Source: a virus. From it: DNA of 64,000 nucleotides. The notes under the pieces were generated by a model. It searched no databases. It was not told where the DNA came from and saw only the letters and a list, made by a program, of their open reading frames with translations. The stretch lies in IMG/VR virus record IMGVR_UViG_3300010413_000013, positions 12,010-76,009 of that record; one strand, given 5' to 3'. The position numbers and the translations under genes were made by a program. Below are positions 41,339 through 52,492 of this stretch, one piece after another; positions within the stretch are counted from its first letter, which is position 1, and each line of letters begins with the position of its first letter.

Positions 41339-41761
41339 TTATGAACTTACACTGATTGCACCGGAAACTTTTAACGTAACATTAATAGTAATCTTATCAT
41401 CCAAAGGAACATCCAACGGTAGATCAGTAACATAAGCAGCAAATTCCAAAGTAGTAGCAGCAGAATCAGGTAAGACAATTTGATAATTTACAGAAGTATC
41501 TGTATCAAAATCATCCTTCATGTCTTCATAACCTTGGTGTGTAAAGTTCATTACTAGTGATACTTCACCGGGATCTCTGAAAGCACTGATAAATTCCCGA
41601 TAACCTCCAGCAGAATCTAGGGAAGTAACATCAATGAAAGCTCTTGACATACTAGGACCAGAAATACTATTTACTTCTGCTACTGCCGTAAAGCTTTCAT
41701 TACTTGTTCCATCACCTCTTTTAAATGATGCACCGACACCACTAATTGCATTTGTAGTCAT
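41339..41761 (-). CDS. Major tail tube protein
   Basis: IDVTSLDS..YREFI...DPGEVS, LKVSG. Confidence 0.88.
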   Translation of the reverse strand: MTTNAISGVGASFKRGDGTSNESFTAVAEVNSISGPSMSRAFIDVTSLDSAGGYREFISAFRDPGEVSLVMNFTHQGYEDMKDDFDTDTSVNYQIVLPDSAATTLEFAAYVTDLPLDVPLDDKITINVTLKVSGAISVSS

Positions 41762-42761: not shown

Positions 42762-43121
42762 CTACTCCAAATAATAGAACTTTATAAAATCAGATCCTAA
42801 TAGATCTGGTATCTTTCCTGTTCCTATTATCTTTCTAGATGCTGCTACATCTCTAGGACCAGCAGTAGAAGATGATAAATCATCTAAATCTCCTAAGAAC
42901 AGGAAACCATCTATTGCCAAGGTAGAGTTAGTAAAAACTTTAGCAGTAGACATTTTCTCTTCTCCATCTAAACCTATCAACAACTTTTCTTTATCTTCCC
43001 ATCTACAATCAATCTCTACTGGTGCATCATATGTTTCACCATACCCACTATTAGTAGAAGTCGCCCAATAGACCGCTGTCTGTTTATACTTCCTCTTCAT
43101 CCTATTAATTAAAGCACTCAA
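42762..43121 (-). CDS. Head closure protein
   Basis: QTAVYW..PVEIDCRWED; synteny. Confidence 0.65.
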   Translation of the reverse strand: MSALINRMKRKYKQTAVYWATSTNSGYGETYDAPVEIDCRWEDKEKLLIGLDGEEKMSTAKVFTNSTLAIDGFLFLGDLDDLSSSTAGPRDVAASRKIIGTGKIPDLLGSDFIKFYYLE

Positions 43122-43480
43122 TTTATCACCTCAAAGGAACAAGTCTTCTTTCCTGTTTGTGCTAATATACCAGAAGTATCTAGTAGTAATACTTGCTGCC
43201 CATACATAGTACCCTCCAAACCTTTCCACGTTTGCCCACTATAGGTAGCTTGTGCATCTCCTATCTTCTCTGATACTGCTTCCCTTGCCAATGGAGTACA
43301 TGATACTAGATGTGCTGCATACCATCTAGCAATATTCTTCAATCTTTCGGCAGCATGTATTCCAGTTAGTTTCTCTGTTACTATTGAATTTGCTACTTCA
43401 CAAAATGGATCTAATTGTGCAGAAGTCAAATCTGTATCCATTATCTCCAATACATCAGCACCAGTTACATAATTTGTCAT
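43118..43480 (-). CDS. Head-tail adaptor
   Basis: WYAAHL, SEKIGDA, TMYGQQ..LD. Confidence 0.7.
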   Translation of the reverse strand: MTNYVTGADVLEIMDTDLTSAQLDPFCEVANSIVTEKLTGIHAAERLKNIARWYAAHLVSCTPLAREAVSEKIGDAQATYSGQTWKGLEGTMYGQQVLLLDTSGILAQTGKKTCSFEVIN

Positions 43481-44181
43481 TTTACTCCTCCTTCTTCTTT
43501 ATAATGCCAGAGTTTAGGAGATACAAAATCTTCTATTTCTTCTTTGTGGTATTCCAAGTCTAAATGTTTTATCATTTCTTCTGTTCCAGTAAAGTCACCA
43601 TTGATAGCTTTAAATGGCCAATACTCTATTAGATCTATACTTAACATCTTCATTTCTGCAAATCTCTTCTTGTGTTCATTTATCCAAACCATCCAACCAT
43701 TTCTTTTATTGAATGCTCTCATAAAAGAAGTCTTTAAACAAGAAGAACAAATATCATAGTCATCTCTTCTAACCAAAACCCATTTTGCTTCTGGAAACAT
43801 TCTAACCCATATAGGATAGATCAAACAAAGCTTTGCTCCTTTAAAGAACCACACCGATTTACCATCATACCCTTGTCTATATAAAATATCCATTACTTCT
43901 TTCTTGTGTCTATTACATATCTCCATACTACCATTTGCATCCCAAGTAACTCTATCAATAGGAGGTAATGGATTCTGCCCCATTGGATCTACTGCTATAC
44001 TTTTTAAATATGGTTTAATTACTTTATTTCGGATAGCAGTATTTTCATATTGTCCTTTCTGATTATTGGGAGTGCTACCAACTACTTCTCCTCCCCATGC
44101 TCCGCATCTACTTATTATCCCTGCGGTAAGAGAAGTTCCACTTCTAGCACATCCAGTTATTAGTATAGGTTTATCTTTCAT
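43477..44181 (-). CDS. Sulfotransferase-family protein
   Basis: ILITGCARSGTSL, FPEAKWVLVRRD...SS. Confidence 0.75.
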   Translation of the reverse strand: MKDKPILITGCARSGTSLTAGIISRCGAWGGEVVGSTPNNQKGQYENTAIRNKVIKPYLKSIAVDPMGQNPLPPIDRVTWDANGSMEICNRHKKEVMDILYRQGYDGKSVWFFKGAKLCLIYPIWVRMFPEAKWVLVRRDDYDICSSCLKTSFMRAFNKRNGWMVWINEHKKRFAEMKMLSIDLIEYWPFKAINGDFTGTEEMIKHLDLEYHKEEIEDFVSPKLWHYKEEGGVK

Positions 44182-44912
44182 TAGAAGTCACCATTCCATT
44201 CTTTTCTAAATACTGCTGGATTCCCTGCATAAACGCCCGGTTCATCTATATTCTTAACTACTACAGATCCCATACCTATAAATACTTTACTACAGATATG
44301 AATACCATTTCTAATAGTAGAATTTAATCCTATAAAACAATCATTTCCTATTAATGCAGATCCACCTATTACTGTTCCATCAGTAATAATATTTCTGTTT
44401 CCTATTCTTACATTATGTCCTATATGCACACCACAACCTATTTTAGTTTGACTTCCTATTACTGTATAATCCAAAGTAGCCCTAGCAATAGTAGAGTTTG
44501 CTCCTACTACTACTCCCTTTTTCAAAACAACACTTCCCATGTGTTTTAAACCCACTAATTCATTTTTACTGCTCTTTGGTTTATACACTGCATATCGCAT
44601 TCCTTCATTACCAATAGATGCTGTAGGATGGATATATTCTGCATCAATCATATCTGCTCTATGATCCTTGTCTCTATTTACTTCATTGTGATAACGAATA
44701 AAATCTGCTATATAGTTTTCTCTAGGAAGTAGTAGACAAGCTTCTTCCTGTACCTCCTCCTTCCTAAGAGTTAATGGAATAAGAATTGCTACTTCACAAC
44801 AGTAGGCTTTTGCAATATTGATTTGTGCTTCAGTTTTAGCATAAGTCATAGCATAGTCTACTAACAAATTAACAGAACAGGTTCTATAGTATTTCTTCAT
44901 CAGATCTAACAT
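44181..44912 (-). CDS. Left-handed beta-helix acyltransferase (LpxD-like C-terminal part)
   Basis: Hexapeptide repeats, GANSTIARAT, HIGHNVRIG, YAGNPA. Confidence 0.8.
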   Translation of the reverse strand: MLDLMKKYYRTCSVNLLVDYAMTYAKTEAQINIAKAYCCEVAILIPLTLRKEEVQEEACLLLPRENYIADFIRYHNEVNRDKDHRADMIDAEYIHPTASIGNEGMRYAVYKPKSSKNELVGLKHMGSVVLKKGVVVGANSTIARATLDYTVIGSQTKIGCGVHIGHNVRIGNRNIITDGTVIGGSALIGNDCFIGLNSTIRNGIHICSKVFIGMGSVVVKNIDEPGVYAGNPAVFRKEWNGDF

Positions 44913-45621
44913 CTTCCTGCTCCTTTGCCATTATCTCAAAAGGATGTGGTGGTTCTTCTGTTTCTCTGTAGATCTTCTGTACCCAACCTACTCCACATTC
45001 TTTAATTCTAGGTTTACCATGAAACAGTATTACTCTAGCATCTTTTGGTTTTCTTCCAAACTTGCAATGATGTTTAAAACTATAGTACCCATCAAAAACA
45101 CTTTGTACTGTTTTTATTTTAAATCGTCTTTCTTCTAGTTTATTATAAGTATATCTCTGCTCCATCTTATATTTAAAATCTTCTTCTTTAAACATCTTGA
45201 ATAACCAAGTCCAATTACCATTCCAAATCTGTAAACCAGAACAAAACTTCTCTCCTCTATTCTTTGCTAGTGCTTGTGGTTCAGCCATATAGAAAACATC
45301 TTCTGGACAAGTTAAAGCAATCTCTCCCAATCTATCTATATTATCTACTACCAACATATCAAGACCAGAAGCAATTGTTGGTCCCTTTGTTCGGAACATT
45401 TCTATCATGCTCCACCAGCCGGGAAGATTTTTCTGTAATTTAATTGTTTCCATGTATGGGTAGTCAATTTCTAAATCAGTATAACAAATAAATCTATGTG
45501 GTATTAATAAATGCTTCTTCACTTGTCTACAAAGTGTAATAGCATCAAACTCTTCAAAATCTCCACCAGATTTAAGTGTTACTACAAAGTTTACTATTTG
45601 TTTTTCAGCTAGATTTGCCAT
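44884..45621 (-). CDS. GT-A glycosyltransferase-like protein
   Basis: LKSGGDF, RFICYTD, GWWSMIEMF, ILFHGKPR; DxD appears degenerate (GLD). Confidence 0.6.
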   Translation of the reverse strand: MANLAEKQIVNFVVTLKSGGDFEEFDAITLCRQVKKHLLIPHRFICYTDLEIDYPYMETIKLQKNLPGWWSMIEMFRTKGPTIASGLDMLVVDNIDRLGEIALTCPEDVFYMAEPQALAKNRGEKFCSGLQIWNGNWTWLFKMFKEEDFKYKMEQRYTYNKLEERRFKIKTVQSVFDGYYSFKHHCKFGRKPKDARVILFHGKPRIKECGVGWVQKIYRETEEPPHPFEIMAKEQEDVRSDEEIL

Positions 45622-46144
45622 TTTTGTCTAACCTTTCGTTTGATGGAATTTCTTCCATAAATTTAGCTGGATTACCAACATATACTCCATAGTCATTACA
45701 CTTGCCTACTACTACTGCTCCTGCTCCTATAAATGTTTCTCTGCCAACAACACATCCCGGTAGTAGTAAAGCACCCATTCCAATTCTTGCTCCATACATT
45801 ACTGTAGGAGGAGTAGGATTAAATGGTGCGGTTTCTCTTCTCAAATGTACCATTCGTTTATCATTACCAGAAACTACCATCTGTCCTATAAATACTTTAT
45901 CTCCTATATTCATTCCCTTTGTTATGTTGCATTGTGCTTGAATGAAACAATCTTCTCCTATTGTCAACCATCCTTCTATTACTGTATTATGCCCTATCTT
46001 CGTTCTCTTCCCTACTATTGTTTCTGGTCTAAGTACACAATTATGACCTATAAAAACACCATCCCCAATAATACAACCATCCTCTATTACTGTATTATGT
46101 CCTATTACTACATTCATTCCTATCTTTACATTTTTACCTATCAT
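45605..46144 (-). CDS. Hexapeptide-repeat N/O-acetyltransferase
   Basis: IG.N..IG repeats, IGAGAVV, YVGNPAK. Confidence 0.85.
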   Translation of the reverse strand: MIGKNVKIGMNVVIGHNTVIEDGCIIGDGVFIGHNCVLRPETIVGKRTKIGHNTVIEGWLTIGEDCFIQAQCNITKGMNIGDKVFIGQMVVSGNDKRMVHLRRETAPFNPTPPTVMYGARIGMGALLLPGCVVGRETFIGAGAVVVGKCNDYGVYVGNPAKFMEEIPSNERLDKNGKSS

Positions 46145-46779
46145 AACGTATCTTCCAATCTAACCCTAGGAACTATTAATGGATCTATTGCTGTTTCTTC
46201 TGAAGCATTTACAATCTCTACTTTCAATGCTTTCAAATCTTCTACTATTGTATGCATACATGGTAAATATCTACTTTTATATGCGTGTGGAACAGGAGGA
46301 CTTTTATGATAGTTATGCCAGTTAAAAGTTACTACTCCTTTATGATCTTTCTTCCCCTGCATATCAAAACCTAGTAGTACTATCTTCTTTGCTCCAAAGT
46401 GGTAGGCAACATTTATTGCTGACATTCCACTATTCCCATTCCATGATATAAAACCCGGTTTTGTTTCTACTCCTTTTGGTTTCCCCCTCTTCCATATCTT
46501 TACTACATATAAATGATATAGACGTTGGCAAGAAGTCATCCGTAATCCGGGATATTTTAAAAACTCTTCTCTATTCCATCCCCACCATTTACAATCTCCA
46601 AAGTAACAAGCATCTACCCAAGTACCAAGTTTAAATGCATCATTTACACCTAATACTCTTCTATCATGTATTAGGTGTAGTGGAGATTGTTTTAAGCTAG
46701 GTCCACCACCTATTACATAGACTGTTTCTCCCTCCCATATTTTAGGAGGGAGAAATCTCCTTTTCTTATCGACATTCAT
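46141..46779 (-). CDS. Maf/DUF115-like (sialyltransferase-fold) glycosyltransferase
   Basis: VIGGGPSL, GVND, NSGMSAIN.A...GAKKIVLLGFDM. Confidence 0.65.
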   Translation of the reverse strand: MNVDKKRRFLPPKIWEGETVYVIGGGPSLKQSPLHLIHDRRVLGVNDAFKLGTWVDACYFGDCKWWGWNREEFLKYPGLRMTSCQRLYHLYVVKIWKRGKPKGVETKPGFISWNGNSGMSAINVAYHFGAKKIVLLGFDMQGKKDHKGVVTFNWHNYHKSPPVPHAYKSRYLPCMHTIVEDLKALKVEIVNASEETAIDPLIVPRVRLEDTL

Positions 46780-47267
46780 TATTCTATCTTTTGCCTACGT
46801 TTTTTACTCTCAGCACCGCTTGCAATTTTTTCTTCTTGTTCTTCCTCTTCTTTTTCTTCTTCATCCTTGCCCCCTACTTCTACTGTTGGTTTTTCTGGTG
46901 CTCCCATATTTATAAGTTCATCAGCTTCTTTACTACTAAGAAGCCGATTATTTAATTTTTCTCCTGTATCCTCATTAACTACATCAAATCTATTAGAACC
47001 CCTACTTATCTTCCTTAATGCAGCAGCATCTTTTGTTTCTTCTACTTCTACTTCTTGTCTTACTATCTCATGGTCAACCAACACACCACCAGAAATTACT
47101 TCTAATTTAAACTCCCAACCCTGTACATTCCTACTATCTGGAAAATCATTGAATGTTTCACCGGGGTAGATCTTTGCTCTTACTGCTTTTGATGTACCTT
47201 CACCAGCTATTATAATCTGGTGTGGTCCATATCCCTTCTTTACTCTATAAGTTCTTTTGTTAGCCAT
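46779..47267 (-). CDS. Hypothetical protein after major capsid gene
   Basis: AAGGAG RBS before MANKRT. Confidence 0.6.
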   Translation of the reverse strand: MANKRTYRVKKGYGPHQIIIAGEGTSKAVRAKIYPGETFNDFPDSRNVQGWEFKLEVISGGVLVDHEIVRQEVEVEETKDAAALRKISRGSNRFDVVNEDTGEKLNNRLLSSKEADELINMGAPEKPTVEVGGKDEEEKEEEEQEEKIASGAESKKRRQKIE

Positions 47268-47283
47268 TTTTTTCTCCTTTTTA

Positions 47284-47311
47284 AAGTACTCCCCCAATTG
47301 GGGGAGTACTT
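47284..47311 (-). terminator. Hairpin after the major capsid gene
   Basis: Perfect palindrome AAGTACTCCCCC-AATT-GGGGGAGTACTT. Confidence 0.65.
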
Positions 47312-47321
47312 AGTTTAAACA

Positions 47322-48356
47322 TTAGTGATATACAACAATACCACATCTAGCATTCTGATCTGCTCTCGGCTGCGGAAGCATAATAGTCATTACCATAAAA
47401 TGCTGGCTCAAACCACCTCTGCTCTCCCACTGAAGAGTAGTCATAGGAAGACCAACTACCATTCTCATAACATCCTGCGTCAACTGCAACATAACAACAT
47501 AATCGGCAGTAAGTTTATCTGCTACCGTAATAAACTGAATACCATCTACTTCCATAAGTCTCTGCCGAATAGTCTTATCAGAAGCAGCTTTAAAATCAGC
47601 ATCAATAGCAGTTTCATAGTTAGTAGGAATGAAGATACCATACGGTCCATAATGGTAGGCATCTATCAAAGCCTGTTTCATAGCCAGTACATCAGCAAGC
47701 ATTGTTTCACCAGTAGCAGCAGAATCATCCCAATCAGCAGTAAGAGATCCAGTATTGGCATTCGTAAAATCCTTAATACCATAAAGTACTCCACCACCAA
47801 AAGTAAAGTTAGAAGAACCATTACAAGTAAGTTCTTCCACCATCTCTGCTACTTTTCTTCCTGCCATTTCAGCACTGGTAGTATCCAACGGTTCACCCAA
47901 TGTTCTAGACGCTTCCAACTGCCGAATATTTACTCTAAACTCCTTGTAAATAATCGGGAGAGGCATATACTTCGTGCTCCAGACCGGACGATCTTCTACC
48001 GCAGTGGGCAGTGGGTCCATTCCAAGAGAAGCATCATTAAATTCATTGAGATCTTCATACTGCAATACGGTCTTTCCTAGGCCATTGGGAATACTGTACA
48101 CCAGACCTTTAGAAATAAAAGTATTTGCACACACTAGCCTATTCCTAGCAGCTTTCAAAACGGCATCGTCAAACTGCTTCCATTCATCTCTACGAAGAGT
48201 AGCATTTGCTACAGGAACAACTACTCCATTCTGATTCATCATGTAGCATCTACCATCATTTTCTCTCCATGTACGCAATGCACCAATATTGAAATTAGTA
48301 GCCATAAGCCGTTCTGCTACTGATCCTGTGGCTTGTCCATTAAGAATATAATCCAT
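47322..48356 (-). CDS. Major capsid protein (HK97 fold, linocin/encapsulin-like)
   Basis: LRRDEWKQFDDAV, PLPII.KEF....RQLEASR..GEPLDT; synteny. Confidence 0.85.
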   Translation of the reverse strand: MDYILNGQATGSVAERLMATNFNIGALRTWRENDGRCYMMNQNGVVVPVANATLRRDEWKQFDDAVLKAARNRLVCANTFISKGLVYSIPNGLGKTVLQYEDLNEFNDASLGMDPLPTAVEDRPVWSTKYMPLPIIYKEFRVNIRQLEASRTLGEPLDTTSAEMAGRKVAEMVEELTCNGSSNFTFGGGVLYGIKDFTNANTGSLTADWDDSAATGETMLADVLAMKQALIDAYHYGPYGIFIPTNYETAIDADFKAASDKTIRQRLMEVDGIQFITVADKLTADYVVMLQLTQDVMRMVVGLPMTTLQWESRGGLSQHFMVMTIMLPQPRADQNARCGIVVYH

Positions 48357-48388: not shown

Positions 48389-48853
48389 TTATTTAAACAT
48401 GCACAGACAAAACCCATAGGGATGTGCAGCAGCACCAGCAGAAGAAGAAGAAAGATCAATTGCTTCTAGAGCAATAGCAACAACGTCTTCTTCCATAACA
48501 ACAGCAGAAGAATCACCGTGTGCTTCTCTCACTTCTCCATTACCAGCAGATACCAACTTATCTCCAATGGCAATATTTTCTCCGATCTTAACCTTCAAGT
48601 AGCATTTCGCACCGGGAGCAGGAATTACTGCTCTTGCCCTATCAGTAGTAGCATAAGCATCAGTCACTCCTTCACCTTCCAGATCATTCTCAATTGCTAC
48701 CATAACAGGAATACATGATCCACCATCAGTAGAATGTTTCTGGAGTGTATTTGAAGAAGTAAGTTCAAGCAAATGCCCCGGATAGAAAGCTGCTGCCGGA
48801 ACTCTTTCAATATACTCTACGTTTCCACCAGCAATAATAGTAGTAACTGTCAT
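48389..48853 (-). CDS. Head decoration/cement protein
   Basis: Between scaffold/protease and MCP; PGHLLE, IAIGDKLVSAGNG. Confidence 0.65.
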   Translation of the reverse strand: MTVTTIIAGGNVEYIERVPAAAFYPGHLLELTSSNTLQKHSTDGGSCIPVMVAIENDLEGEGVTDAYATTDRARAVIPAPGAKCYLKVKIGENIAIGDKLVSAGNGEVREAHGDSSAVVMEEDVVAIALEAIDLSSSSAGAAAHPYGFCLCMFK

Positions 48854-48883: not shown

Positions 48884-50461
48884 TTATTCTTTGTTCATAT
48901 CTGCAAGAGTAGGTACAGCCATTGGTTCTACTCCTTCAGTATTAAAGACACCACCAGACCTACCACTATAGTCTGCTTCTCCACCTTCCGGTACAGGAGC
49001 TTCTACCAAAGCAGCAATTGCTTCCAGTTCTTCAATGTCTTTTGCTTTAAGCTGATCCTCTGTAAATTTGTTCTTCTCACTTCCGGTAATAAGAGTAATC
49101 AGCTTTGTCTTCTTTGCATCATACTCTTTCAAACCAATCCTAACAGTTTTCTGAACATCTTCTGGAAGATCTTCCATTGTCACTTTTTTCTCTTCATTAT
49201 TCACCTGTTTCCCTCCTTCTTCTCCACCTTCTGCCGGGGGAGTTTCCGGTACATCTGGTTGTTTATAAGCGGTTTCCTCAATCTTGGCAAATGCTTCTTC
49301 ATTCAAGCCAAGAAGCCATTCCTTGTCAGTTTCCCCATAGGGAGTATCCTCGTTTGCGATTAATGCATTCACTCTGTCTTCACAACACATATTATTAATT
49401 GCCTCCTTCTTCATTTTGTTTTTTACTTCTACATATTCTTTTTTAACTTTCACCTCAATAGGTGCTTCGTTAAATTCTACTTCACCGTTTTGAGTAGTAG
49501 AGTATTTTACTTTATATAGTTTACTCTCTTCACCTTCCTTATATCTCTCATAAACTATATAATCCTTATATGCATCTACAAGCCAAAAGCTCGTTCCTAG
49601 TGGTGCTTGTGACCTTACTGCATTAGCTAACTTCTCCAACTTCTCGAACATTCCATCTTCGGTCTTTGCATAGTCTAGCAAACCACTTAAAAAATGTTTT
49701 ATCATTCCTTTTATTATATTATCATCTTCTTTTGCTGCTTGATTCCTTAGTAGTCCACACCCATCTGAAGTAGAACATGCTCCTTTATCATTTGGCAGCA
49801 AAGCTAGATGGTCCCCTCTAATTTCTGTAACAGTTCCTTCATAATCTTCTCCATTCCATGTACCACCTTCCATATCTACAACTGCTACTACTCCTGTACT
49901 TATTTCGCCTTTGTTTTTATAGCTTAGTACATCATTGATAAAGTTTGGTGCTTGTTCTTCTATCTTAGCAGTATTTATATATAGATCTGCTTTAATCTTA
50001 TTATCAGCATATCTACTATTAAATACATTTCCTACCGTACATCTTTCATAAACTTCTGGAGTATCACAAGGTACATACTGTCCATCATCGTCTTTAGGAT
50101 GCCCTACTGTTATTGGTGCTTTGTTCCAAACATTGGCATATTTCTCCAGTACATCACTAGAGTAGTAAAGCGGTCCTGCTCCTACTCCACTATGCACACC
50201 CTCTACTAGTAGTACAGCAGGAATTACTGTAGTAGGAGCATTATTAAATGTTATGTTCTTAGTTTCATTTACCAACAAAGTCACTTTGACTTGCAAATTA
50301 TTATTCATTTGGTTGTTTGTCCTTTTCTTTTTAAATTGACTGTAACAAATAGCTGCTCTCTGTTTAGAATCTGAATATTCTTTTTTCATTACTTCACTTC
50401 CCATACATCTAGAAACGAAGTCTGATTGTTTCTCTCCCTTGCTTGGAGTAGGTATTGGCAT
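48884..50461 (-). CDS. DUF2213-like capsid maturation protease/scaffold
   Basis: PITVGHP, EISTG, DHLALLP..GACS..GCG. Confidence 0.75.
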   Translation of the reverse strand: MPIPTPSKGEKQSDFVSRCMGSEVMKKEYSDSKQRAAICYSQFKKKRTNNQMNNNLQVKVTLLVNETKNITFNNAPTTVIPAVLLVEGVHSGVGAGPLYYSSDVLEKYANVWNKAPITVGHPKDDDGQYVPCDTPEVYERCTVGNVFNSRYADNKIKADLYINTAKIEEQAPNFINDVLSYKNKGEISTGVVAVVDMEGGTWNGEDYEGTVTEIRGDHLALLPNDKGACSTSDGCGLLRNQAAKEDDNIIKGMIKHFLSGLLDYAKTEDGMFEKLEKLANAVRSQAPLGTSFWLVDAYKDYIVYERYKEGEESKLYKVKYSTTQNGEVEFNEAPIEVKVKKEYVEVKNKMKKEAINNMCCEDRVNALIANEDTPYGETDKEWLLGLNEEAFAKIEETAYKQPDVPETPPAEGGEEGGKQVNNEEKKVTMEDLPEDVQKTVRIGLKEYDAKKTKLITLITGSEKNKFTEDQLKAKDIEELEAIAALVEAPVPEGGEADYSGRSGGVFNTEGVEPMAVPTLADMNKE

Positions 50462-50463
50462 TA

Positions 50464-50661
50464 TTAGTCTGTCTCCATCTCTATCATTTTTGTATTCTCT
50501 TTTAAATCTAATAATTCTTGTGCTACCTTATCACCTTTCTTTGCTTTTTTCTTCAACCTAGCAGAATTAAACCAATCGTCGTTCAAAGACTCTTCTACTA
50601 AGTCTACTACAAATGGTGCTACCTTCTTTCCCATTTTACATCCCCTTCCAAAATAAGTCAT
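50464..50661 (-). CDS. Small protein downstream of MuF (possible antitoxin/partner)
   Basis: Coupled to the MuF stop; function inferred from position only. Confidence 0.4.
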   Translation of the reverse strand: MTYFGRGCKMGKKVAPFVVDLVEESLNDDWFNSARLKKKAKKGDKVAQELLDLKENTKMIEMETD

Positions 50662-52492
50662 TTATAGGTACTTGTTTATTTCCACCTAATACTATAAACT
50701 CTCTTTCAGACATAAACTTATTCTTCCACCAAAGCTCATGTGGTAGTACTACATCTTTGGTACTCATTTCTATCCTAGCTGTAACCCCACCAGCGTTTTT
50801 TCCAAACCCATCTGCTATTGACACTTCATCTGTATATCCAGACAAAGCATTTTCTCTAATTGGAACCAAACCATAGCCTTCTTTTTGTGCTTCTAAACAC
50901 CTTGCTTTAAAGGCTGGTCCTGTTTTACTTCCGTCAGTTCCACGATATAGAGTAATTTTCTTTTGTCCTACTGCTCTATAATATTCTTGGGTAGCTGCTC
51001 TCACTCTTATATACTCGTCTATTACTCTGTCTTCCATACCACTTGCCAAATATTTCTTTACTTCTTTCTCTATAGACTCACTGGATACAAAAGCTTTTAT
51101 TTCTCTGTTCTCTACTTTTGCTGCTACAAACTTTAAAGAAGCAGGATACGAACCTTGTGTAGACCCTTGCCAAATAGAAAGGAGGTTCATCACATTGGGG
51201 CATTCTTCGCTTATCTTCTTTCTGATAACACTCTGCATTGATCCTTCTGTCTTATCTTCTAATCCTTCAATAAACTTTCTGTACTCCTTCCTGTAAAGCT
51301 TGTATACATTCTCGTATTCCCCTCTCAGTGTTCCTACTTCTTCCGCTTCATACTTTTTACCTATCGGATACCTTTTAATCTTTACTGGTTCTTTCTTCTT
51401 TTTAGCATAGTCTAATTTTGCTTTAGCTTTTTCTATAGCCTTTTTCTTTATAGCTATCTGCTTCTCCAGTGCTGCTAATGCTTGTTGTTTAGCAAGCAGT
51501 TCTTGTTTAACCTTTACTGCTTTTATGGCTTTTACTCCTAATGCTTTTTCCCTCTTAGCAGCAGCTTTAGTATTGCTGCCATGAATACTTTTCATATAAG
51601 GTAGTAAAGCACATCTGCAATTTGGTTCACCTATTAACTCTTCTGCTTCTTGCCTAGTATATATTCTACCATGCCTTTCTATATGTGTATCTCTAACCCT
51701 TTCATCTAGTGCTGTCCACCACTGTACTAATATTTCTTCATTTACTATAGGTTCAAAATTCTCGTATTCGGTTAATGCTCCTAAATTATGTGTTCTTACT
51801 ATTTCAGTTCGAGTAATCAATCTTGCTCTATTGATTGCTCTCATATTCTTTCCACCTACTGTTACCATACCAGTTTTATCTTTGTCAATAGTATCCAACA
51901 TATTCCTAGCAATTTGATATGGTCCCTTACCTTCTGCTAGTCCTAATGATAGTACTCTACTTATCTGCCGATCCATTACTTCTGTAATGCCCTCTAGATC
52001 AGAAAAGATTCTACTATAAATAGGTTCTATTCTTTCTATATGAATAGGCTGATTAAAACCCACTCCAATACTTCCTTTCAGTACAGTGGGTGGTAAATCT
52101 TCTACTCCACTTGCTTTAAGCTCTGCTCTTCCTGTCAATATCCCTTTCTGATATGCCGTTTGAATATAAGTATTAGTCCACGGTTCTATCTTTCCTGTAA
52201 GTGGGTTCTTTACTTTCTCCAGTATTCCTATTTCTTGTTGTTCTTTTAACCACTCTATAAATTCATTTACCTTCTCTGCATCATTCCTATATTCAAAAGC
52301 TCTAAAACCGGGAGTAGACAATTTAATATTGGCTATCAGTTTTAGTTTGTTCATCTTCTCTTCTTTTAAACCTAAACAATCTTCCTTGACTACAGCTTTC
52401 CATATAACAGCTTTCAGTTCTCTGAAACGTCTAGCCATATCATTAGAAAACCTTCTTCTAAGTACTATAGTTCTGGTAGGATCTTGTTTCAT
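50636..52492 (-). CDS. MuF/SPP1 gp7-like head morphogenesis protein with C-terminal ADP-ribosyltransferase-like domain
   Basis: DPTRT, RARLITRTE, WWTALDERVRDTH, EPNCRC; C-terminal LYRG / SGYT / EREF. Confidence 0.8.
   Translation of the reverse strand: MKQDPTRTIVLRRRFSNDMARRFRELKAVIWKAVVKEDCLGLKEEKMNKLKLIANIKLSTPGFRAFEYRNDAEKVNEFIEWLKEQQEIGILEKVKNPLTGKIEPWTNTYIQTAYQKGILTGRAELKASGVEDLPPTVLKGSIGVGFNQPIHIERIEPIYSRIFSDLEGITEVMDRQISRVLSLGLAEGKGPYQIARNMLDTIDKDKTGMVTVGGKNMRAINRARLITRTEIVRTHNLGALTEYENFEPIVNEEILVQWWTALDERVRDTHIERHGRIYTRQEAEELIGEPNCRCALLPYMKSIHGSNTKAAAKREKALGVKAIKAVKVKQELLAKQQALAALEKQIAIKKKAIEKAKAKLDYAKKKKEPVKIKRYPIGKKYEAEEVGTLRGEYENVYKLYRKEYRKFIEGLEDKTEGSMQSVIRKKISEECPNVMNLLSIWQGSTQGSYPASLKFVAAKVENREIKAFVSSESIEKEVKKYLASGMEDRVIDEYIRVRAATQEYYRAVGQKKITLYRGTDGSKTGPAFKARCLEAQKEGYGLVPIRENALSGYTDEVSIADGFGKNAGGVTARIEMSTKDVVLPHELWWKNKFMSEREFIVLGGNKQVPINDLFWKGM

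Follow-up and report, generated by a model that had tools for sequence, protein, structure and literature searches.

Virion glycosylation is established for mycobacteriophages including Che8 and Rita (Freeman et al. 2023, as cited in PMC11256854 and PMC12582341); according to the passages concerned, these phages encode glycosyltransferases that act in the cytoplasm on their own capsid proteins and so produce a glycan shield. Among bacteria, flagellin glycosylation islands adjoin flgL, as stated in the passage of PMC3542563 that cites Arora et al. (2001; PMC55422). The fibril gene clusters of Moumouvirus (Megavirinae) encode sugar-nucleotide synthesis, glycosyltransferases, an acetyltransferase, an adenosine 5'-phosphosulfate (APS) kinase and a sulfotransferase, and sulfated glycans on the virion fibrils were proposed by the authors, as yet unvalidated (PMC10117803). 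Here we describe a five-gene enzyme island in an uncultured tailed phage, IMG/VR virus record IMGVR_UViG_3300010413_000013 (76,009 bp), of which bases 12010-76009 were analysed (64,000 nucleotides; hereafter the window, whose numbering is used for all coordinates that carry no locus name). The island lies between the major capsid protein (MCP) gene and the head-tail adaptor gene, an arrangement that is far beyond chance and recurs in hundreds of related viral contigs. The best reading, which we hold with moderate confidence, is that a late, cytoplasmic five-gene set glycosylates and sulfates a protein of the virion.

The locus shares with the Maf-type flagellin islands a Maf catalytic domain, hexapeptide acetyltransferases resembling NeuD/PglD, variable tailoring genes and, on our reading, the modification of a self-assembling structural protein by soluble enzymes in the cytoplasm. 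It differs from them in that the phage Maf is a 212-aa catalytic core rather than a 632-aa protein, the acceptor would be a virion protein, and nonulosonic-acid synthesis genes are missing from this phage. Among the mycobacteriophages, whose hosts are Actinobacteria, the putative glycosyltransferases of the cluster F1 phage Maravista lie near the right end of the genome, and the passages cited report no Maf-type enzyme, sulfotransferase or APS kinase (PMC11256854); in contrast, the island described here sits between capsid and adaptor genes, is hypervariable, and occurs in hundreds of uncultured phages. The Moumouvirus clusters are larger, include full sugar pathways, and belong to giant amoeba viruses with unrelated capsids. 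Literature searches found no published Maf- or sulfotransferase-bearing island in a phage head operon.

The five enzyme genes occupy 43477-46779 on the minus strand and are, from 5' to 3':

46141..46779, minus strand: predicted Maf/DUF115-type glycosyltransferase of the cytidine monophosphate (CMP)-ulosonic-acid-dependent type (ORF1; 212 aa; phrog_4603, 8e-33)
45605..46144, minus strand: left-handed beta-helix (hexapeptide) acetyltransferase (ORF2; 179 aa; PF00132, 2.6e-26)
44884..45621, minus strand: GT-A glycosyltransferase, GT8-like (ORF3; 245 aa; phrog_1962, 4.8e-22)
44181..44912, minus strand: hexapeptide N-acyl/acetyltransferase (ORF4; 243 aa; PF00132, 3.7e-15)
43477..44181, minus strand: predicted sulfotransferase of the type dependent on 3'-phosphoadenosine 5'-phosphosulfate (PAPS), with a TPST-like fold; 3' end gene of the island (ORF5; 234 aa)

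An earlier, sequence-only reading of the window had described these genes as an overlapping cassette in a late head operon, one gene after the MCP gene and directly before the adaptor gene, and this layout was confirmed. Successive overlaps are 4, 17, 29 and 1 nt; at the ends of the cassette, the first enzyme gene shares 1 nt with the 172-aa ORF upstream of it and the last shares 4 nt with the adaptor gene. The flanking assignments rest on PF19774 and phrog_771 for the MCP and on DUF4054 for the adaptor, and the late head-operon setting is supported by the gene overlaps and by the embedding of the cassette among head and neck genes. Promoter- or terminator-like sites between the MCP and adaptor genes were no more frequent than in shuffled sequence. 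None of the five enzymes has a transmembrane or hydrophobic segment or a signal peptide; all five are soluble.

The functions that the sequence-only reading had assigned to ORF1, ORF2, ORF3 and ORF5 (Maf/DUF115-like transferase, hexapeptide acetyltransferase, GT-A glycosyltransferase and sulfotransferase, respectively) were borne out, the third of them refined to a GT8-like type, whereas the assignment of ORF4 held in part. Searches of the PDB with single sequences of ORF1, ORF3 and ORF5 gave nothing usable. The AF2 model of ORF1 (pLDDT 93.9) matched the Maf structure 5mu5_A with a Z-score of 15.3 and a root-mean-square deviation of 3.4 Å over 185 aligned residues, followed by MptE (Z 10.9) and Cst-I (Z 10.3), and Foldseek also retrieved 5mu5 (E 1.7e-4). 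ORF1 aligns to residues 257-510 of the 632-aa Maf, which is the catalytic domain alone. Its score against PF01973 (MptE-like) was 27.2 bits, under the gathering cut-off of 34.6; a profile of the ORF1 family built from 32 relatives matched Campylobacter Cst-II in the PDB (2.2e-4), and ORF1 itself weakly matched WaaZ, a transferase of Kdo (3-deoxy-D-manno-octulosonic acid) III (TIGR04437, 3e-4). Its gene is the one most conserved in the island, and we propose that ORF1 is the priming enzyme.

Besides their PF00132 matches, both hexapeptide enzymes resemble the NeuD/PglB/VioB subfamily TIGR03570, each below its cut-off of 160.8 bits (ORF2, 1.8e-22 and 79.9 bits; ORF4, 1.1e-25 and 90.4 bits). ORF4 had earlier been called an LpxD-like acyltransferase. 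It is a hexapeptide N-acyltransferase, but it falls outside LpxD: its match to the LpxD equivalog TIGR01853 (7.8e-35) scored 120.3 bits, below the cut-off of 242.5, and aligned LpxD positions 166-309 alone. By sequence, the likeness of ORF4 to LpxD and to NeuD/PglD is thus one of resemblance, not membership, and "acylated" may simply mean acetylated.

ORF3 belongs to a virus-dominated family and had no Pfam match, including to the GT8 family PF01501. The profile of its family hit GT8 structures in the PDB weakly, among them glycogenin and the Skp1 alpha-galactosyltransferase (6mw5, 0.0026). It resembles the GT8 enzymes glycogenin, Skp1 alpha-galactosyltransferase and LgtC in its GT-A fold, in an Asp motif after a beta-strand and in a C-terminal His-x-x-Gly...Pro motif (FHGxPRPHE), and several GT8 members glycosylate cytoplasmic proteins. 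It differs from them at the DxD site, where the family consensus is D-L-D and the first Asp is replaced by Gly (G-L-D) in the subclade of this phage. In the ESM Atlas, the nearest named cluster was GT8 at 0.93, and the structural matches included viral proteins in which a glycosyltransferase is fused to a Maf domain.

ORF5 scored 27.6 bits against PF13469 (Sulfotransfer_3), a marginal match given the cut-off of 27.0; it has 457 homologue clusters of ~50% identity, and many homologues carry PF13469. Residues invariant among 32 sequences are R13-S-G-T-S17, K114/K117, R138-R139 and S147. The RSGTS loop presumably binds the 5'-phosphosulfate of PAPS and the Arg...Ser motif (R138-R139, S147) the 3'-phosphate, as in TPST1/2, which share the RSGT(S/T) loop and the Arg...Ser motif. 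TPST1/2 were also the best folds for the ORF5 model (pLDDT 90.6; 3ap1 and 5wri, Z 15.0-15.4), ahead of a polyketide sulfotransferase (Z 13.1), mycobacterial Stf (12.2) and heparan sulfate sulfotransferases (~11), and the top 40 VIA matches were all sulfotransferases (Z 10-15.4). The alignment to TPSTs covers ~198 of the 234 residues at a sequence identity of 14-15%, and by sequence the sulfotransferase profile reached 0.011 at best against the PDB. ORF5 could sulfate a glycan or, directly, protein tyrosine; its co-occurrence with Maf, described below, suggests a sugar acceptor. A second sulfotransferase-like gene lies outside the cassette (window:75-875, minus strand; 266 aa, with the start probably at residue 16) and encodes a GLQRSGTT loop. 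Its product matched PF13469 over the P-loop part alone (21.8 bits) and in the ESM Atlas adjoins sulfotransferase clusters (feature score 0.96, structural TM 0.68), so that the phage probably encodes two sulfotransferases.

To determine how widely the arrangement is conserved, we surveyed related viral contigs in two ways, both by alignment-based scans, which were needed since a single-sequence MCP scan of the viral contigs found nothing. A scan with the sulfotransferase alignment yielded 333 viral contigs, of which 80 loci were analysed. The island kept its position in 80/80 of these; the adaptor gene directly followed the sulfotransferase gene in 76/80, and a Maf-like gene followed the MCP gene and a small ORF wherever the contig reached far enough. 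A second survey, started from the capsid to remove selection bias, found at least 557 capsid relatives in IMG/VR, with the MCP and adaptor genes on the same contig in 52 loci. Maf was present in 45 of these 52, the GT8-like enzyme in 31 and the sulfotransferase in 29; all 29 loci with the sulfotransferase also had Maf, 16 Maf loci had no sulfotransferase, and in seven loci there was no island, the gap between MCP and adaptor genes being 365-696 bp. These counts indicate that the island is accessory, that Maf is its core and that the sulfotransferase is a frequent, dependent addition. The synteny survey that the sequence-only reading had called for shows the island slot recurring between MCP and adaptor.

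Island content is far more variable than island position. The stretch from MCP to adaptor ranges from 1,866 to 11,567 bp, and 37 non-redundant islands contained 298 ORFs in 77 protein families; minimal islands consist of Maf and the sulfotransferase alone, and the end genes are ~45-50% identical across hundreds of phages. Islands of relatives add GT2 glycosyltransferases, S-adenosylmethionine (SAM) methyltransferases, radical SAM/SPASM enzymes and NAD-dependent epimerase/dehydratases, and they also hold a Zn-dependent dehydrogenase, a short-chain dehydrogenase/reductase (SDR), a split transketolase, extra sulfotransferases and an APS kinase, the enzyme that makes the sulfate donor PAPS. Some enzymes are fused: a Maf-like domain to an acetyltransferase in one relative (L020:2920-4089) and Maf to a GT8-like domain in two others (L054 and L060), the latter type forming a viral cluster of 121 members. 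The Maf-acetyltransferase and glycosyltransferase-Maf fusions tie the enzymes to one pathway.

Islands of some relatives (L027:2709-3716, L038:3164-5246 and L080:4690-6534) hold the Zn-dependent dehydrogenase, the transketolase, split into N-terminal and pyrimidine-binding halves, and the SDR next to an 800-aa protein with a GT8-like domain at its end; these genes point to the making of an unusual sugar, branched or extended in its chain. The island of another relative contains a GIY-YIG/NUMOD3 homing endonuclease gene (L062:2849-3472, plus strand).

Homologues were also found beyond this group of phages. A prophage of the cultured alphaproteobacterium Euryhalocaulis caribicus JL2009 (L090) carries a Maf-sulfotransferase pair between the gene for MuF and those for a DUF2213 head protein and the MCP. 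This prophage is of another morphogenetic type (Terminase_3, Phage_portal_3, PF09950 capsid) and unrelated to the phage described here; its portal protein (L090:5433-7331, plus strand; Phage_portal_3) has a C-terminal Acb1 anti-CBASS phosphodiesterase domain (PF23474, 2e-34). In Pseudomonas Detrevirus phages, a Maf homologue lies between MCP and adaptor genes, and in Caulobacter phage CcrColossus one lies at the end of the tail genes, before a cluster of glycosyltransferase and methyltransferase genes. Among ~20 cellular loci with sulfotransferase homologues, a flagellar context was seen in two Halioxenophilus genomes only. There the gene directly follows flgH-I-J-K-L and precedes genes for a DegT aminotransferase, an HMW1C-like protein, an FkbM methyltransferase, a hexapeptide transferase and an AMP-binding enzyme; flagellin glycosylation islands usually have this position and composition. 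Further cellular homologues occur as fusions with TPR or Sel1 repeats, with a second sulfotransferase domain, with a methyltransferase or with a GT47 domain. Chromosomes of Thiobacillus and of a gammaproteobacterial metagenome-assembled genome carry tandem arrays of genes for ~700-aa proteins (L104:4243-10530 and L107:4485-10541): the Thiobacillus proteins that were scanned have TPR repeats, one of them with two sulfotransferase domains related to the phage enzyme, and a scanned 698-aa protein of the gammaproteobacterial array had no Pfam match.

We propose that the five late-expressed cytoplasmic enzymes modify a surface protein of the phage itself, before or during assembly. The Maf-type enzyme would place a host-supplied, CMP-activated ulosonic or nonulosonic acid on Ser/Thr of a head protein, possibly also of the tail tube, in the way that Maf modifies flagellin. 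The GT8-like enzyme would then add a hexose, the two hexapeptide transferases would put acetyl or acyl groups on the sugars or on the nucleotide precursors of these, and the sulfotransferase would add sulfate from host PAPS. The particle would thereby gain a coat of acidic glycan, acetylated and sulfated, the structure of which would differ between related phages because island content is hypervariable. We infer the acceptor, the donors, the order of the steps and the biological benefit. A virion protein is favoured as the target because the enzymes are soluble and late and their head-module position is kept across at least two unrelated capsid lineages; because hypervariable content is enclosed by conserved end genes and fusions link the enzymes; because relatives encode APS kinase, and cellular relatives either sit in flagellar glycosylation loci or have repeats that bind proteins; and because the nearest solved structures of three of the enzymes (Maf, TPST and glycogenin/Skp1 glycosyltransferase) modify proteins. 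By analogy, the hypervariability of the island resembles that of surface-glycan loci under diversifying selection. The sequence-only claim that the virion carries an acylated, sulfated glycan is supported in part: the enzyme identities and late setting have stood, and the comparative evidence favours a virion protein target.

Several observations weigh against this reading. The N- and C-terminal domains that flank the catalytic core in cellular Maf, whose architecture spans ~600 aa, are absent from the Maf-like protein of the phage. The seven island-less relatives indicate that the island is not needed for assembly. Of cytidylyltransferase, sugar-nucleotide, GT2 and APS kinase genes, this phage carries none, so that its donors must be supplied by the host. 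Two candidate acceptors were considered: the 154-aa head protein encoded 5' of the MCP gene, with a Ser-rich loop, D-x-S-x-S-S, conserved near its C-terminus across relatives, and the major tail protein, which in relatives ends in T/S or Gly-Ser tails. The MCP and the 154-aa protein of this phage do not end in Thr or Ser. The Ser-rich loop and the S/T C-termini of MCP and tail tube occur equally in island-bearing, Maf-only and island-less relatives, and the comparison of these motifs did not identify the acceptor protein. Lastly, the GT8, WaaZ-like and LpxD-like similarities also fit enzymes of the lipopolysaccharide (LPS) core.

This last point bears on the possibility that the island remodels the host envelope, its soluble enzymes acting at the cytoplasmic face on nascent LPS core, capsule or host flagellin; by adding a Kdo-like sugar, a hexose, acyl groups and sulfate, they would alter the receptor and thereby block superinfection or keep progeny from sticking to debris. 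GT8 includes LPS core transferases, ORF1 and ORF4 match WaaZ and, below its cut-off, LpxD, and a cellular sulfotransferase homologue sits in a flagellar locus. We nevertheless consider envelope remodelling unlikely, as the genes lie among late head and neck genes and overlap with them, a timing that leaves too little of a lytic cycle for the envelope to turn over, the head-module position is kept across unrelated capsid lineages, and membrane-associated or flippase-type components are lacking. Slightly more doubtful again is direct sulfation of tyrosines in virion (or host) proteins by the TPST-like enzyme, independent of any glycan. The lead of TPST1/2 among the folds, the fusion of cellular homologues to protein-binding TPR or Sel1 repeats and the minimal islands of Maf and sulfotransferase would all suit it, but the lead over carbohydrate and polyketide sulfotransferases is just 2-3 Z units, the dependence of the sulfotransferase on Maf in the capsid-started survey fits a step downstream of Maf, and a conserved tyrosine acceptor was not seen in comparisons of the small ORF and the structural proteins.

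Phage glycosyltransferases that hypermodify DNA are known (bioRxiv 10.1101/2023.12.21.572611; PMC12838424), and late expression of the island would coincide with packaging, so that the transferases might instead glycosylate, acetylate or sulfate phage DNA bases to evade restriction. This is highly improbable because the complete genome has no gene of the thymidylate-synthase/dCMP-hydroxymethylase family (PF00303) or for a C5-cytosine methyltransferase (PF00145); moreover, a set of 20 early proteins included no enzyme that modifies nucleotides, the closest structures modify proteins, and the island lies in head rather than replication modules. It is equally hard to credit that the genes are accessory "morons" with no role in the virion, which reprogram host sugar or sulfur pools and ride in a permissive insertion slot. 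Seven relatives do without the island, and the homing endonuclease in one island shows that the slot accepts mobile DNA; set against this are the conservation of the end genes across hundreds of phages, gene overlaps as expected for translational coupling, the fusions that link the enzymes, and the recurrence of the Maf-sulfotransferase pair in another head module, that of the Euryhalocaulis prophage.

Modification of a virion protein thus remains the reading that we prefer, and it would have several consequences. In most sampled members of the clade, the same place in the head operon holds a flagellin-like Maf system that has a sulfotransferase dedicated to it, with content that varies as fast as bacterial surface-glycan loci. 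To our knowledge, experimental demonstration that phage particles glycosylate themselves is confined to mycobacteriophages, and a sulfated phage particle has never been shown. It is possible, and we suggest it tentatively, that a very large group of uncultured tailed phages, together with unrelated phages that acquired the Maf-sulfotransferase pair, add sulfate to their own particles, placing it on an ulosonic acid installed by Maf or, by means of the TPST-like enzyme, directly on protein tyrosines. If so, this would be the first sulfated bacteriophage virion, with a polyanionic, strain-variable coat acting like a flagellin or O-antigen glycan that might mimic or repel sulfated marine polysaccharides, prevent aggregation or mask the capsid. 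Should the virion be the target, phage surfaces in sediment and seawater would be chemically far more diverse than assumed. Such diversity would matter for adsorption and the stability of particles, for their sticking to polysaccharide matrices, and for grazing and immune recognition, and the islands would constitute a new set of soluble tailoring enzymes for protein glycans. The E. caribicus JL2009 prophage, with the minimal pair in a cultured bacterium, makes the question testable at the bench.

The island is set in a minus-strand series of genes that runs from the MuF-like, 525-aa and 154-aa head proteins through the MCP, a 172-aa ORF and the five enzymes to the adaptor, 3' of which follow genes for connector proteins, the major tail protein, chaperones and the tape measure protein:

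50636-52492, minus strand: MuF-like head protein
48884-50461, minus strand: 525-aa head protein (phrog_760; weak head maturation protease matches)
48389..48853, minus strand: 154-aa head protein, decoration or scaffold-like, 5' of the MCP gene (phrog_766 "head decoration", 1e-13)
47322..48356, minus strand: MCP, HK97 fold type, DUF6260 family (PF19774, 1.3e-23; PF04454 (Linocin_M18), 6e-13; phrog_771, 2.8e-26)
46779..47297, minus strand: small conserved ORF after the MCP gene (172 aa from TTG; ATG at 47267 is the likelier start)
43118..43480, minus strand: head-tail adaptor, DUF4054 (PF13262, 2.4e-5; phrog_37884, 3.5e-11)
41339..41761, minus strand: major tail protein, ending in ...SVSS (phrog_158, 1.2e-20)

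The closest annotated capsid to the MCP is that of Brevundimonas phage StAshley (39.6% identity). By position, the 525-aa protein might have been taken for the portal; this was rejected, given its matches to phrog_760 and, weakly, to head maturation proteases, and the portal is encoded elsewhere in the genome. The small ORF had no Pfam or PHROG match. Members of its family occur in 27 of the 37 unique islands and consist of a basic N-terminal module (Y/FRVKxGxGxH...PGD) and a C-terminal module (GGGR-YDVxN...LxKxEA), both conserved, joined by a variable acidic linker. The idea that it is specific to the island was discarded, as a similar N-terminal module occurs in the island-less phage StAshley. 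Its GAA-rich Glu tail (low-complexity, 46826-46863) draws unrelated metagenome contigs in searches.

The virus record has direct terminal repeats, is complete (CheckV 100%) and has a GC content of ~33%. Near-identical DNA is present in marine-sediment metagenomes, from which the record may derive, and contigs of a second study, labelled soil, match the cassette piecewise with 0-1 differences. The region had no match when its DNA was compared with 50,697 phage records, so that it has no close cultured relative in DNA sequence, and no RNA record carrying the stretch is listed. Elsewhere in the window, a family A DNA polymerase (window:19796-22426, plus strand) has an N-terminal domain of the uracil-DNA-glycosylase superfamily (PF03167, 5.7e-11) before its 3'-5' exonuclease domain.

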